The position numbers and the translations under genes were made by a program. Below the pieces are notes generated by a model. The model saw only the letters and a program-made list of their open reading frames with translations. It searched no databases and was not told the origin of the DNA. Source: Escherichia coli (GTDB taxonomy: Bacteria > Pseudomonadota > Gammaproteobacteria > Enterobacterales > Enterobacteriaceae). Taken from it: 64,000 nt of DNA. This document shows, piece after piece, positions 11,477 through 38,542 of this stretch. Location of the stretch: NCBI RefSeq assembly GCF_003334385.1, contig NZ_QOWN01000007.1; one strand, given 5' to 3'. Each line of letters starts with the position of its first letter. The stretch's first letter is position 1.

Positions 11477-11488
11477 CACGCTACCGCC
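11477..11488 (-). promoter_or_regulatory. ops element (GGCGGTAGCGTG) within a JUMPStart sequence in the galF-rmlB intergenic region; RfaH-dependent antitermination site for the O-antigen operon
   Basis: Plus strand reads cacgctaccgcc at 11477-11488, the reverse complement of the ops consensus, so it is on the transcribed strand of rmlB. The flanking sequence acgctaccgcccctggcttt is shared with the second copy at 36225. Confidence 0.85.
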
Positions 11489-11773
11489 CCTGGCTTTACA
11501 GCTACCAGAGCACTGCATGCATGCCTACGATGTGACGAGCGTTACCCACTCGCGCTTAACCCGAAAAATTCAAACGCTAATTGTCTTACCAATCCGCCCT
11601 GGAAACAAGGAAAATCCTGGAAAACTTTGACTAAAATCCTATTGCTAACTCGTTGTTATTCTGATTGTTTATATAAAACAACGGCAGGAATATTCGCAAC
11701 AAATTACTTTCGCCACGAATCTTCACTGCCGTTATAATTTTCTTATCAACCGTTACATTCGGTCAGATTTTCA

Positions 11774-14246: not shown

Positions 14247-15467
14247 CTATAAAGCTTGCAGCAAGCTGGCGAGTTCTCGATTGATCACCTGCTGGTTAAA
14301 ATCGTGTTCGACTTTTTCGCGAGCACGTTTGACGACAGGAGCCAGTTCGTCGGTGTCCAGTTGGCTAAACGCCGCCAGTCGTTGCGCCAATGCGCGAGCA
14401 TCGTTCTCAGGCACCAGCCAGCCGGATTTATCGGCCTCCACCAGTTCCGGTATTCCACTATGCAGAGTAGAAACCACCGGAATGCCGACCGCCATCGCTT
14501 CCATTAGCGCCACCGGAATACCTTCCATATCGCCGTCCGCACCCGTTACCGAAGGCAGCAGGAAGACATCCGCGTCGTCGAGCATCGCTTTCACTTCATG
14601 GCTCGGTTTAAAACCCGGCATCTCCACCACATCTTCCAGTTGATATTGTTCGATAAGCGTGCGCAGGCGTCGTTCCCACGGGCCAATGCCGAGAATGCGA
14701 TAGCGAAATGCCACGCCCTGCTCTTTCAACTGACGGCAGGCTTCAATCGCCACATGCAGACCTTTTTTCTCGGTTAAGCGTGCGACGGAAATGATTTCCA
14801 GCGGCGTTGCAGGCGCTTTCACCGGACGCGGGCTAAAGCGCGTCATGTCCACACCCATACGCGATACGGCAATTTTTTCCCTCGGGCAGCCCATTTTTTG
14901 CAGCCTTCCGGCCCACAAATCGCTTATCGGTAACATCAGATCGCCACGGCGAAACAGTTGCTGATATTCGGGAGTGTAATGGTTGAGCACTTCCCGACTG
15001 GAAATATCAATGCCGTGGAAAATAGTGGCAATTTTGCCGCGAATGACACCCAGTTCGCGTAGTTTTGCTGCGGTTACCCCCGCAGGGCCAAAATGAGCGA
15101 TGAACACATCGGCGCGAAACGGTGTTGCGACCTGACCACAAATGGCAGACAAAATCAGGTTCCGCGACTCGGCACCATAGCGTTTGAGGTTGAGCGCCTG
15201 CCAGGTATTTTTACGATGAATGCCGCGTAAGGTCTGGCTGGCGCGGTGGCGCAGTTTCGCAACTTTGCCTTGTGGTTCGTCCTGTAACCAGCGGGTTCTG
15301 GCAGCAAGGTTGTATTTCGTCCATGCCGCGTGGGTGTTCTGGGTGTCGCCTTTTTGCAGCGCGACAATCTCCACCTCAAAGCCCATATCAATAAACGCGG
15401 TAATTTGATTGAGGACGAAGGTTTCCGAAGACAGCGGAAATTTCAGTAAAAAGAAGCCGACCTTCAT
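14247..15467 (-). CDS. wcaL: Colanic acid biosynthesis glycosyltransferase WcaL (GT4)
   Basis: 406 aa; [22 protein letters not shown]... position and length match WcaL; start overlaps the wcaK stop. Confidence 0.9.
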
Positions 15468-16744
15468 TTCACCTCCCCGATGCGCTCAAGCACAGATTGC
15501 ACCATCTGCATTCCCGTCTGACGCTCACGACTGACGGCTTCGCTAAGTCGTGCGTTCAGCGCCGGAAGCTGGCCTAAGGTATCCGCAACCATCGCTTGCA
15601 GGCTGCCGTCTAATAAATGACGGATATCAATTGCCATCTCCGGTAGTCCCAGCTGCTGCATAATCCCGGCGGATTTATGTTCATAGTTGATGGCAATCGC
15701 CGGAGTAGCAAAGTTCATTGAGATAATGGCGGAGTGCAGGCGCGTACCGACGGTGAGTTCACAGGCCCCCAGAATTTTGCCCATTTCCAGATCGTTGAGT
15801 TCATCCATCACTACGTGGTAACGGGCAGGATCGCTGATGTGCTGACGCAAGTTGAGCGCCACCATGCGGTCGTCTTTGTTATAGCTGTCGATGCCCGTAC
15901 AGGTGGAGAGCGCAATCACCTGATAGCCTTCGTCGAGAATGCGATTGACCACCCCGGCAAAGGCTTTTTCATACGCTTGCTGAGTGGTGCCGAGACGTTT
16001 GTCGAACGGTGCCAGTTCGCGCAGGGTAATTGCCACCGTTTTCTGTTGTGCGGCAACGTCCAGCCAGTGTTGAACGGCATAGCTGGCAGTGAAGTCTTCG
16101 GTGTGGTGATCGACCAGCCACGCAGTATCGACGCCATGTTCCACTTTTGCAGTGGTGATATTGCTGCGTTTCATCAGATCAAGGCTGACCGATTCGCGCA
16201 GGATCAGCGCGTCACAGTGACCAAAAACGTAGTTCGCCAGTTGGTTAAATTGCTCATCCTGGAAGGGACCGACGCTGTGACCAATCATAAACAGCGGCTT
16301 TTTCGCCATAAACGTGCAAAGTGCATGTTCAAACTGCGGCACGCCATAGAGATCGACAAAAAACGATCCGCCGACCTGGATAATGGCATCGTAACCTGAC
16401 AGTAGGCGCACGAAGTCAGTGAATCCCTGGGCGATGGCAATATTGCGCAGCTTGCCAGTGTCGGTGACGCGCGAGAGCAATACCTGGTGTTGATAGCGGC
16501 GACGGAGGACTTTTTTAACGCGCCCGACAACGCCCGCCGCGCTGTTGTGTTGTTTCATTTGAAGGAACAGCGGATCGCCCATTACCGGGCGGTTGAGCAG
16601 CCAGGAAGAACTGACCGGATAGCGGCTCATCACGTCCACTTCGGTATGTGGATTGAGGATGTTGATGGCATCAAGTAAGCCGCGCAAGATGGCGCTGTCG
16701 CCACGATTGCCGCAAGTGTGGTTGCCCAGAATAAGTAATTTCAT
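15464..16744 (-). CDS. wcaK: Colanic acid biosynthesis pyruvyl transferase WcaK
   Basis: 426 aa; MKLLILGNHTCGNRGDSAILRGLLDAI matches polysaccharide pyruvyl transferase (WcaK/CsaB family). Confidence 0.9.
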   Translation of the reverse strand: MKLLILGNHTCGNRGDSAILRGLLDAINILNPHTEVDVMSRYPVSSSWLLNRPVMGDPLFLQMKQHNSAAGVVGRVKKVLRRRYQHQVLLSRVTDTGKLRNIAIAQGFTDFVRLLSGYDAIIQVGGSFFVDLYGVPQFEHALCTFMAKKPLFMIGHSVGPFQDEQFNQLANYVFGHCDALILRESVSLDLMKRSNITTAKVEHGVDTAWLVDHHTEDFTASYAVQHWLDVAAQQKTVAITLRELAPFDKRLGTTQQAYEKAFAGVVNRILDEGYQVIALSTCTGIDSYNKDDRMVALNLRQHISDPARYHVVMDELNDLEMGKILGACELTVGTRLHSAIISMNFATPAIAINYEHKSAGIMQQLGLPEMAIDIRHLLDGSLQAMVADTLGQLPALNARLSEAVSRERQTGMQMVQSVLERIGEVK

Positions 16745-16805
16745 TTTTTCCTCATAAATTTGATGCCAGGTGAGGCTGTGTTTGTTGTGTTCGTTGCCGT
16801 TTTTT

Positions 16806-17280
16806 GCCTGATGCGACGCTGGCGCGTCTTATCAGGCCTACAAGACCCGAGCACAGAACCGTAGGCCGGATAAGGCGTTCACGCCGCATCCGGCATTCAG
16901 TGCCTGATGCGACGCTGACGCGTCTTATCAGGCCTACAGGTCCCGAGCACAGAACCGTAGGATGGATAAGGCGTTCACGCCGCATCCGGCATTCAGTGCC
17001 TGATGCGACGCTGGCGCGTCTTATCAGGCCTACAAGACCCGAGCACAGAACCGTAGGCCGGATAAGGCGTTTTACGCCGCATCCGGCATTCAGTGCCTGA
17101 TGCGACGCTGGCGCGTCTTATCGGGCCTACAAGATCCAAGCCCTGAACCGTAGGCCGGATAAGGCGTTCACGCCGCATCCGGCATTCAGTGCCTGATGCG
17201 ACGCTGACGCGTCTTATCAGGCCTACAGGTCCCGAGCACAGAACCGTAGGATGGATAAGGCGTTTTACGCTGCACCCGGC
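16806..17280. repeat. BIME array of about five tandem REP (repetitive extragenic palindromic) units between wcaK and wzxC
   Basis: The unit gcctgatgcgacgctg(g/a)cgcgtcttatcaggcctaca...ccgtaggccggataaggcg...cgccgcatccggca recurs with a period of about 100-120 bp. Track ORFs 16752..16985, 16804..17100 and 16993..17307 are translations of these repeats. Confidence 0.9.
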
Positions 17281-17308
17281 AACCGTTGTCGGAACCGAAA
17301 ACAACAAC

Positions 17309-18787
17309 TCACCCCGCCCGTAAAAGCATTTTCATTTTTTCGCTGCGACAAAACTGACGCTTCACTTCCACCACCAGCGGATGGCGCGACAGCACAATCA
17401 TCACCACAAACGCCAGCACGCCCGCGGCTATTTGCACCGCCAGCAGCATCCCCAGCGCCAGTTGCCCTTTCAGCACAATGCCCAGCACATAACTGACCAC
17501 CAGCGTCGGCAGCGAGAGATAAAACGGCAGCCACAAACTCAGGATGTACTGGCGATAACTGGAACCAAGAACCGGTTTAATCATCACGAAGTAACTCAGA
17601 ATGGTGTTGATAATCTGCACCAGCAGGAAACCGAGCGTGACGCCGATTGCGCCCGCCATCTGCCCACCAATAACAATCGCCGGAATAAACAGAAATGTTT
17701 TGAATACGTTGAATTTAAAGCTGATGTCGACCCGCGCTTTCGCCATCAGTAGCGAACCAATCGGGTTACCCACCGAACGCAGCAGACCCACCACACACAG
17801 CAATTGCAGCACCGGAATAATGCTGTTCCACTTCTCACCAAAGACCAGCGGTACAAAGTTATTTGACACCACCATCAGCCCCAGCAGCGCCGGAAAGTTG
17901 ATAATCCCCACCACCGACAGCAGCTTGTAGAAGTTGACGCGCAGCTTTTCGGTATCGTCCTGAATTTTGGCGAATGCCGGAAACAACACGCGGGTGATGA
18001 TCGGGTTCAGCTTCATCGGCGGCACAACGGCCACGTTGTACGCCAGGTTGTATCCCCCGGCCACGCCCGCGCCGAGAATACGCGCCAGCACCAGCGTCGA
18101 AAGGTTGGTGTTGAGATAGTTGATGATGCTGTCCGCCGTCAGCCAGGCACCAAAGCGTAAGTTCGGTGCCACCGACGCCAGCGAGAAATGCAGACCGGGG
18201 CGATAAATTTTGCGGCCAAAGTAGCCAAACAGCAGCGTTCTCACCGCACTATTGACCAGATAACCGAGGATCGCGGTCATCGCCAGCGGCCAGAAATGGG
18301 CGCTAACCACCGTAAAAGTGAAGCCCGCCAGTACCGCGCTGGTTTCGATCATGCCGATTTTGTTGAACTCCAGCTCCTTCTGCATCAACGCGCGGAACTG
18401 TTGCCCGTGGGGGATCACCACAAACGCCAGCGACAATGTTTTAATCAACGGTGCCAGGTCCGGGTTATTCAGCACGTCGCCGATGAGATCACTCAACAAA
18501 AACACCGCCACGCACACCACGATCCCCAGCCCGACGTTCAGCCAGTACAACGTGGTGAGTTCAAGGTGACTGATTTCTTTTCGCTGAATAATCGAGTTAG
18601 CGATACCAAAGTCAGAAAGCGTATCTGCCAGCGCGATGATCACCAGCGACACGGTAAGCAAACCGAACTGGTGGTTGTCGATAATCCGCGCCAGCACGGT
18701 CATCTGCACCAGCCCGAGGCCGATGATGATCACCGTGGCAATCGCCGACCACTTCGCGCCGCTGATGGTTTTTTCACGTAAGCTCAT
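17309..18787 (-). CDS. wzxC: Colanic acid repeat-unit flippase WzxC
   Basis: 492 aa polytopic membrane protein, MSLREKTISGAKWSAIATVIIIGLGLVQMTVLARI..., between wcaJ and wcaK as in the colanic acid operon. Confidence 0.9.
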   Translation of the reverse strand: MSLREKTISGAKWSAIATVIIIGLGLVQMTVLARIIDNHQFGLLTVSLVIIALADTLSDFGIANSIIQRKEISHLELTTLYWLNVGLGIVVCVAVFLLSDLIGDVLNNPDLAPLIKTLSLAFVVIPHGQQFRALMQKELEFNKIGMIETSAVLAGFTFTVVSAHFWPLAMTAILGYLVNSAVRTLLFGYFGRKIYRPGLHFSLASVAPNLRFGAWLTADSIINYLNTNLSTLVLARILGAGVAGGYNLAYNVAVVPPMKLNPIITRVLFPAFAKIQDDTEKLRVNFYKLLSVVGIINFPALLGLMVVSNNFVPLVFGEKWNSIIPVLQLLCVVGLLRSVGNPIGSLLMAKARVDISFKFNVFKTFLFIPAIVIGGQMAGAIGVTLGFLLVQIINTILSYFVMIKPVLGSSYRQYILSLWLPFYLSLPTLVVSYVLGIVLKGQLALGMLLAVQIAAGVLAFVVMIVLSRHPLVVEVKRQFCRSEKMKMLLRAG

Positions 18788-21608: not shown

Positions 21609-21698
21609 GTCGTTACCCTTTTTCAGGCAATAGTTGGCCCTGACCGAAACGGCCAATTTTGTTTTTGTCGTTATTTACATCTCGGTTTCGCATTCATT

Positions 21699-21800
<102 letters not shown>

Positions 21801-32178: not shown

Positions 32179-32285
32179 GCCGGATGCGGCGTGAGCGCCT
32201 TATCCGGCCTACGGAGCTGGTTTGCTTGCCGGATGCGGCGTGAAGGTAGGTCGGATAAGATGCGTCAGCATCGCATCCGACAGCG
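32179..32285. repeat. REP palindromic units between wcaA and wzc
   Basis: gccggatgcggcgtgagcgccttatccggcctac ... gccggatgcggcgtgaaggtaggtcggataag ... catcgcatccgaca. Confidence 0.8.
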
Positions 32286-32292
32286 GATGTCG

Positions 32293-36224: not shown

Positions 36225-36236
36225 CACGCTACCGCC
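36225..36236 (-). promoter_or_regulatory. ops element (GGCGGTAGCGTG) within the JUMPStart sequence upstream of wza (colanic acid operon leader)
   Basis: Plus strand reads cacgctaccgcc at 36225-36236, the reverse complement of ops, about 180 nt upstream of the wza start on the minus strand. Flanking sequence is shared with the copy at 11477. Confidence 0.85.
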
Positions 36237-36704
36237 CCTGGCTTTTTAGCTACCAATACACTGATTTAGCTTAATTTTTCAAACCCTCTCTGCATACAAT
36301 CGTTGATGAGAAAGGGTTATTGCGGAAATTAACTTCCGAATATAAGGTGACATTATGGTAATTGAATATTGGCTCTCCAATAATGCAGGAGGAAGTGTTA
36401 CAGCTAACGGAATAGCAGGCAAGGTAACAATTCGGCAATTGGCTATTTTTAAGAATTATATTAAGTGTCATTCAATATGGTTTTTAGGAGTTTCTTTAGG
36501 TTGACAATATTTAATATTGCGCCTCCACATGCGATATTTCTTAAATAATGTTTTATTATTACCACTTTTAATTCAGGGATAATGTGAGGTTATTACCCTC
36601 AAATAATATGAGATAAATAGTGCTGCAACATTGCATTTTTGCCCCGATTTATCCATGATCGAATTGTGACATTTGTCATACAACGAATAGGTTTTGTACT
36701 TACT

Positions 36705-38288: not shown

Positions 38289-38514
38289 TGGTATCGGTCA
38301 TTTTACCCGATAGCCGAAAGGAATAAGATGAGGGAACCGCGCCAGCGGCGATTTACCTCCGGGAGCCCGGGTTGCCAGGGGGGTGGCGATTGAGCCACCC
38401 TGGCACGTTCACCGGCTTGAGCGTTCCATAGTAGTGAGGAACATCAAGTGAACGGAACAGCCTTCGATCTTACATATTCAGAATATAATGGTGCCGCCGC
38501 GAACGCCTGATGCG

Positions 38515-38542
38515 ACGCTTTACGCGTCTTATCAGGCCTACA
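38515..38542. repeat. Single REP palindromic unit downstream of asmA
   Basis: gcctgatgcgacgctttacgcgtcttatcaggcctaca. Confidence 0.75.

Follow-up and report, generated by a model that had tools for sequence, protein, structure and literature searches.

A five-unit BIME-2 array at the REP144 locus, between wzxC and wcaK in the colanic acid operon of Escherichia coli

The spacer between wzxC and wcaK in the colanic acid operon is filled by an array that is, with near certainty, the BIME-2 of the REP144 locus, expanded to five units and ten REPs. The array was analyzed in a window of 64,000 nt of Escherichia coli DNA (the whole stretch of DNA that was studied, to which all positions below refer). 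BIME-2 arrays, their variable copy number, and the presence of REPs between wcaK and wzxC are already known (PMC3333891; PMC3158064, 2011), and the array in the window is one such locus, ordinary and described before, in an allele with an expanded number of units. The following analysis defines its anatomy, the unoccupied form of the site, and the range of alleles among E. coli strains, and weighs what the array may do within the operon.

The genes on either side of the array were identified from end-to-end matches to equivalog models. wcaK, the downstream gene of the junction, encodes the colanic acid pyruvyl transferase and lies at 15464 to 16744 on the minus strand (TIGR04006 equivalog, 935 bits, positions 1 to 426 of 426). 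wzxC, the upstream gene, encodes the colanic acid repeat-unit flippase and lies at 17309 to 18787, also on the minus strand (NCBIfam NF007773 equivalog, 835 bits, positions 1 to 492 of 492; the RefSeq annotation of matching genomes agrees). Positions 16745 to 17308 (564 nt) therefore constitute the entire wzxC-wcaK intergenic gap, and the limits that the sequence-only reading had given for it proved exact. Because both genes are on the minus strand, transcription proceeds from wzxC through the array to wcaK. The outer neighbors of the pair are wcaL and wcaJ, and the earlier placement of the array within the colanic acid operon is correct. The sequence of the spacer is 100% identical to that of mouse isolate strain MSI001. 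REP features were sought under the spacer in the RefSeq annotation of K-12 and of matching genomes, and none was present there.

Signals that could separate the two genes transcriptionally were examined on both strands of the region from 16400 to 17700. A consensus scan of this region found no sigma-70-like promoter and no intrinsic terminator (hairpin plus U-tract), which rules out such a promoter or terminator within the spacer; the last hairpin in the mRNA is followed by AAAAAA, not by a U-tract. A JUMPstart element with an ops sequence (GGCGGTAGCGTG) is located in the wza leader at 36225 to 36263 on the minus strand (Rfam RF01707, 57.3 bits versus a gathering score of 35). This element marks the colanic operon as an RfaH target, which is relevant to any Rho-dependent effect of the array. 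In CFT073 without H-NS and StpA, RfaH was reported to give a ChIP signal on wza-wcaM (PMC9765446). A second JUMPstart element, at 11477 to 11515 on the minus strand, precedes the next downstream gene cluster, which probably comprises O-antigen genes.

The array occupies positions 16805 to 17281 and consists of five units of 96 to 97 nt. Tandem Repeats Finder reported a period of 96, 4.9 copies, 91% matches, and a score of 803; an alternative period of 193 nt described the same array at 93%. Each unit is composed, in order, of a 37-nt Z2 REP on the plus strand, a 19-nt linker (AAGACCCGAGCACAGAACC or a close variant), a 35- to 36-nt inverted Y REP, and a 5-nt linker, TTCAG. The five Z2 REPs (16805 to 16841, 16901 to 16937, 16997 to 17033, 17094 to 17130, and 17190 to 17226, plus strand) have 0 or 1 mismatch to the Z2 consensus. 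The five Y REPs, on the minus strand, lie at 16861 to 16895, 16957 to 16991, 17053 to 17088, 17150 to 17184, and 17246 to 17281, the second and the fifth being degenerate. The window contained seven matches to the Z2 consensus and five to the Y consensus, versus none for either in 100 shuffles. The sequence-only reading had counted roughly five REP units. The five tandem units stand, but each carries two REPs (Z2 plus Y), so that the REPs number ten and the earlier count was short by half. Two positions distinguish unit 1 from unit 3, and units 2 and 5 have diagnostic variants in common. Protein-coding ORFs across the array were ruled out, since the translations on both strands are periodic repeats: an ORF at 16804 to 17100 on the plus strand yields LPDATLARLIRPT... 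with a 32-residue periodicity and overlaps ORFs on the opposite strand, just as expected of the artifacts that these reading frames had been taken to be.

The composition of the array was compared with the definition of BIME-2, namely, z2 plus y in multiple tandem copies with short linkers and a strain-variable copy number (PMC3333891). The array contains Y and Z2 and no Z1, with three Y copies near consensus and two degenerate. Z2 on the plus strand and Y on the minus strand alternate strictly over 4.9 copies of the 96-nt unit, and the 5-nt and 19-nt linkers are too short for the BIME-1 L motif with its IHF site. The array is also extragenic, lying in the wzxC-wcaK spacer, and varies from 0 to 6 units among E. 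coli strains. The BIME/REP name given to it earlier is thus appropriate, the Y/Z2 composition and alternation fitting BIME-2 specifically. The corresponding K-12 MG1655 locus is REP144, at 2118467 to 2118652 between the tandem pair wzxC/wcaK (10.64898/2026.03.23.713779, supplement). Four matches to the Rfam naRNA4 model (RF02564) were obtained at 16864 to 16934, 16960 to 17030, 17056 to 17127, and 17153 to 17223, all on the plus strand, antisense to the operon, with scores of 71.6 to 79.7 bits versus a gathering score of 59.5. Each match coincides with one Y-TTCAG-Z2 pair; the Rfam model in effect recognizes any Y-Z2 REP pair.

Folding predictions were made for individual REPs and for the whole spacer. 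Eight of the ten REPs fold singly at −17 to −22 kcal/mol, with nearly equal values on either strand. On the mRNA strand, the Z2 hairpins range from −17.2 to −21.9 kcal/mol and the three intact Y hairpins from −21.3 to −22.1 kcal/mol, while the degenerate Y copies at 16957 and 17246, which have changes in the stem, fold weakly, at −12.9 and −8.6 kcal/mol, respectively. The whole spacer folds at −303.9 kcal/mol on the mRNA strand (z = −13.4 versus shuffles), and the other strand gave a z of −11.0 versus shuffles. In the global minimum fold, pairing is between adjacent Y and Z2 copies. With the span limited to 50 nt, the predicted structures are local stems, partly single REP hairpins and partly pairings between the facing halves of neighboring REPs.

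To define the unoccupied site, alleles without any unit were compared with occupied alleles. The 0-unit allele has a 71-nt spacer with a perfect 13-bp inverted repeat and a 10-nt loop directly after the wzxC stop codon. In the empty allele L002, the arms are GTTGTTGTTTTCG and CGAAAACAACAAC, and the hairpin has a predicted energy of −23.5 kcal/mol (z = −2.9). In occupied alleles, the array lies inside the loop of this hairpin, splitting the inverted repeat, and has one copy of an 8-bp direct repeat on each side. In the window, the wzxC-side arm is at 17296 to 17308, adjoining the wzxC stop codon, and the wcaK-side arm, at 16781 to 16793, has decayed, with one internal mismatch and the outermost position unpaired. 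The left copy of the direct repeat is CGTTGCCG (plus strand; 16792 to 16799) and the right copy is CGTTGTCG (plus strand; 17284 to 17291), with one mismatch in the window; in the mRNA sense the repeat reads CGGCAACG, and neither copy has a mismatch in the six-unit allele L007. The direct repeat is present even though the IS200/IS605 relatives thought to mobilize REPs make no target duplications (PMC3333891). It could equally serve for exact excision of the array, so that either state may be ancestral. A lone Z2 REP lies within the corresponding hairpin of E. whittamii.

The sequence-only reading had proposed that REP copy number at this junction be compared among E. coli genomes. Flank-only queries were run against the complete E. 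coli genomes (5,426), with spacer length taken from the span of the match; a second flank query was able to bridge gaps of up to 1,500 nt. Alleles were counted in two systematic samples of 60 records each, 120 genomes in all, and the number of units varied from 0 to 6. Two units were commonest (41 of 120 genomes), followed by none (19), one (16), four (12), five (11), six (5), and three (3). A 65-nt remnant was present in 4 genomes, an unrelated spacer in 6, and a divergent or partial match in 3. Unit-free alleles thus accounted for about 16% of the sampled genomes and alleles with five or six units for about 13%. No array of more than six units was seen among the 120 sampled genomes, and rare larger alleles are possible. 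One allele of each class was checked by sequence, and all were in-register multiples of the Z2/Y unit. Within the sample, lineages look uniform: O157:H7 has one unit, K-12 derivatives have two, and O25:H4 has four. Flanks 99.1 to 99.3% identical to those of the window carry one unit versus the five in the window.

How the number of units changes is suggested by the units themselves. The six-unit allele corresponds to the four-unit allele with a two-unit block repeated. Together with the likeness of units 1 and 3 and of units 2 and 5 in the window, this block repeat points to unequal recombination or slippage; the comparisons fit growth and shrinkage in register, in steps of 96 or 193 nt and often in two-unit blocks. 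In the remnant allele (L003, strain 2009C_3612), the start of a Z2 is fused to the end of a linker and one degenerate Y is left, an arrangement suggestive of a one-unit BIME that has undergone an internal deletion. Strain B and the type strain ATCC 11775 are among the approximately 5% of E. coli genomes (275 of 5,426) in which a 161-nt boxC-like spacer takes the place of the BIME. In E. coli B (L008, 646 to 806), this spacer contains the G/C-rich palindrome cccctcgccccctggggagagggttagggtgaggggg and is accompanied by divergent gene ends; the allele looks like an imported junction. In approximately 715 to 770 of the 5,426 complete genomes, megablast found nothing that matched the wcaK/wzxC flanks, and in 69 the identity was only 80 to 90%; the distal colanic acid genes are therefore missing or divergent in a sizeable minority.

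The junction was next placed in the context of the Enterobacteriaceae by scanning species-representative genomes with WcaK, which yielded 80 loci. Inserts of at least 50 nt were found between wzxC and wcaK in 27 of 77 species representatives (50 to 271 nt) and inserts of at least 100 nt in 17 of 77; in most species the spacer is 14 to 32 nt and barely exceeds the wcaK ribosome-binding site. Adjacent junctions are tighter. Between wcaJ and wzxC the median is 9 nt (at least 50 nt in 5 of 76 and at least 100 nt in 3 of 76), wcaK and wcaL overlap by 4 nt in nearly all genomes (no insert of either size in 80), and wcaL and wcaM are separated by a median of 11 nt (at least 50 nt in 5 of 75 and at least 100 nt in none of 75). 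At least three repeat families are represented among the wzxC-wcaK inserts. REP-type palindromes occur in E. coli, E. whittamii, Citrobacter amalonaticus, and Salmonella enterica subsp. arizonae. Many Enterobacter, Lelliottia, Pluralibacter, Kosakonia, and other genomes carry G/C-rich palindromes (CCCTCACCCTAACCCTCTCCCC...GGGGAGAGGG), which we take to be boxC-like, and one insert matches what is presumably the ERIC core, as judged from ERIC primer sequences. The wzxC-wcaK junction is a recurrent landing site, a pattern for which permissiveness (it is the only uncoupled junction) and selection for structure are both possible explanations. Under one reading, the junction would be selected across the Enterobacteriaceae for stable RNA or DNA structure, having captured repeats independently in about a third of the species, with the number of units in E. 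coli acting as a heritable dial for WcaK, WcaL, and WcaM relative to the upstream genes. Lineages would thereby differ in how much colanic acid they make or in its finishing chemistry; this we consider improbable.

Smaller REP sites elsewhere in the window had been listed at 21699, 32179, 38515, and 45404. Such sites are present at 21699 to 21790 (Z2 plus Y plus a fragment, forming a BIME in the cpsB-cpsG spacer), at 32179 to 32290 (two to three REPs in the wzc-wcaA spacer), and at 45404 (Z2 plus Y), whereas the one listed at 38515 is a single REP at 38505. The colanic operon therefore has three REP-occupied junctions (16805, 21699, and 32179). At the position that corresponds to the wzc-wcaA spacer, group 1 capsule clusters carry a stem-loop attenuator. 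An algC RNA motif (21613 to 21662, minus strand; 78.2 bits versus a gathering score of 33.8) is found just upstream of cpsG/manB (phosphomannomutase), adjoining the BIME at 21699 to 21790. Two SIB RNA (Sib antitoxin) genes, unrelated to the array, are located at 52087 to 52235 and 52422 to 52564 on the plus strand (149.5 and 142 bits). The plus strand is strongly C-rich at 17300 to 17500, over the 3' end of wzxC, with a GC skew of −0.39. In K-12, an in vitro NusG-dependent Rho-binding peak at the equivalent antisense place touches REP144 by 1 nt (10.64898/2026.03.23.713779); this peak at the wzxC 3' end may terminate antisense transcription.

With these features in hand, the possible function of the array was considered. 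The nearest system examined by experiment is REP325, a six-unit Y/Z2 array within the yjdMN operon (10.64898/2026.03.23.713779). Deletion of REP325 lowered expression of the upstream gene and raised that of the downstream gene, so that the upstream/downstream ratio fell from 35 to 1, and the array gives rise to a ladder of hairpin-ended RNAs (10.64898/2026.03.23.713779). Genome-wide, tandem gene pairs that contain REPs had a median log upstream/downstream ratio of 0.96, versus −0.09 for controls, with wide scatter (10.64898/2026.03.23.713779). Because the array in the window would be cotranscribed with wzxC and wcaK, as the shared strand of the two genes, the negative consensus scan, and the JUMPstart/ops leader suggest, its stable hairpins are likely candidates for a modest, context-dependent barrier to 3'-to-5' exonucleases. 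Such a barrier would shield the wza...wzxC portion of the mRNA, and the array could dampen expression of wcaK-wcaL-wcaM; more units would mean more hairpins. On DNA, the array is probably also a site of gyrase binding and cleavage. The presence of unit-free alleles in about 16% of the sampled genomes and of 14- to 32-nt junctions in most other Enterobacteriaceae indicates that the array is dispensable for colanic acid synthesis. We tentatively favor, at a level somewhat short of probable, this reading of the array as a quantitative, dispensable exonuclease barrier with a gyrase site, rather than as a dedicated regulator.

The main rival to the exonuclease-barrier reading is that the array is a neutral passenger, a selfish or slippage-prone repeat that persists at the only junction of the distal operon without translational coupling and has no selected effect on expression. 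Several observations are consistent with this: alleles of 0 to 6 units coexist and some 16% of genomes have none, near-identical flanks (99.1 to 99.3%) accompany either one or five units, and two of the Y copies are decaying. The tightness of the adjacent junctions (the 4-nt wcaK-wcaL overlap and the median of 9 nt between wcaJ and wzxC) also agrees with this view. Counts from uninduced K-12, which has two units, are without upstream bias (mean counts of 90.9 for wcaK versus 36.2 for wzxC) (10.64898/2026.03.23.713779); this comparison is weak because the counts are low and not length normalized and the operon is off. However, stable hairpins in an mRNA are unlikely to be free of effect, given the REP325 deletion and the genome-wide bias. 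Three unrelated families of structured repeats at the junction in many species also need to be accounted for, and permissiveness may or may not explain them fully. On balance, a purely neutral array is possible but doubtful.

Alternatively, the primary role of the array could be at the level of DNA, as a topological insulator or a strong gyrase site serving an operon that is long and strongly inducible, as a recombination junction for exchange of the adjacent O-antigen region, or both. Gyrase cleavage sites are overrepresented in BIME-2 independently of transcription, y being cut more often than z2 (PMC6379681). A change in similarity in O157 coincides with the wcaK-wzxC REP region (PMC3158064), and the 275 genomes described above carry an entirely unlike spacer between divergent gene ends. 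However, only a subset of BIME-2 elements is cleaved, and a search of the gyrase supplementary tables for wcaK/wzxC gave no occurrence. Empty alleles are also common, and a breakpoint in an indel-rich spacer may be a coincidence; the authors who raised the idea in 2011 themselves called it speculation (PMC3158064). We therefore regard a primary DNA-level role as unlikely, as distinct from the accessory gyrase site that forms part of the exonuclease-barrier reading.

Rho-dependent termination within the array was considered because the spacer leaves 564 nt within the operon untranslated and because REP325, as the full-length array only, shows partial Rho dependence, with read-through rising from 23% to 39% in the presence of bicyclomycin (10.64898/2026.03.23.713779). 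The orientation of the wca array argues against it. The wca array is inverted relative to REP325, and its C-rich linkers are therefore antisense, so that Rho loading on the sense transcript is not favored; the linkers in the mRNA, GGUUCUGUGCUCGGGUCUU, are G/U-rich. The only listed in vitro Rho-binding peak near REP144 is on the plus strand, antisense to wzxC. In addition, ops/RfaH on the colanic operon suppresses Rho, there are no U-tract terminators, and the K-12 counts are higher downstream of the array. Termination by Rho within the array thus appears quite unlikely. The same two features, orientation and RfaH, weaken the role as mRNA stabilizer or partial terminator that the sequence-only reading had proposed, for which REP325 provides the analogy; such a role for the wca array is best described as plausible.

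That the array encodes naRNA4-like small RNAs that act with HU in nucleoid condensation, as originally proposed for REP325 (PMC4550694), is scarcely credible in spite of the four RF02564 matches above the gathering score, since these matches are antisense to the sole evident transcription unit, lack a promoter-like site on either strand, and are of a kind that the model returns for Y-Z2 REP pairs generally, and since a 2026 reexamination found no effect of REP325/naRNA4 on nucleoid volume or long-range contacts (10.64898/2026.03.23.713779). An naRNA4 gene as the main explanation of the array was rejected on these grounds, the matches being antisense to the operon and the nucleoid role contradicted.

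For annotation, these results mean that ORFs called over the array are spurious and that an naRNA4 match signifies only a Y-Z2 REP pair. The alleles with 0 to 6 units at a single operon junction form a natural series, a ready test bed for whether REP arrays tune upstream versus downstream expression. Likewise, the recurrent capture of three repeat families at one junction across genera offers a possible test of a permissive site versus a selected structure. Both the series of alleles and the hotspot seen across species are a resource for further work, rather than a discovery per se.

Several known systems provide a framework for the array in the window. The REP element of malE-malF, reportedly shown by Newbury et al. 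in 1987 to be an mRNA stabilizer, is like the wca array in placing REP hairpins between two cistrons of a polycistronic mRNA. It has two REPs and is said to have been established as an exonuclease barrier by experiment, whereas the wca array has ten REPs and is known from its sequence. REP325 is closer in architecture: both are tandem Y/Z2 arrays with a period of about 100 nt, both lie between cotranscribed genes (yjdM/yjdN for REP325), both match the naRNA4 model, and both are thus multihairpin REP arrays between tandem genes of one transcription unit. They differ in polarity, the naRNA4 match being on the sense strand in the yjdMN operon and on the antisense strand in the wca array. The linkers differ as well, with a C-rich linker of 17 nt and another of 11 to 12 nt in REP325 versus linkers of 19 nt and 5 nt with other sequences in the wca array. 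The C/G content of the mRNA is 159/165 in the wca array and 219/170 in REP325. The wca array therefore lacks the combination of REP325 polarity with C-rich, G-poor mRNA linkers, a combination whose use as an indicator of Rho loading is our own and not a published defining feature. The terminator/stabilizer function of REP325 was demonstrated by deletion, whereas such a function of the wca array is putative.

At the locus itself, the closest precedents are from other E. coli strains. The O157 strains studied by Iguchi et al. in 2011 (PMC3158064) also showed REP indels between strains at the wcaK-wzxC junction and a similarity break at the spacer. That study covered six strains with two or four REPs, whereas here alleles of 0 to 6 units were sampled across approximately 4,700 genomes and the empty site was defined. 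REP144 of K-12 agrees with the array in the window in locus, flanking genes, Y/Z2 types, linkers, and orientation. It differs in having two units in a 275-nt spacer, versus five units in 564 nt, and in a few point variants between units.
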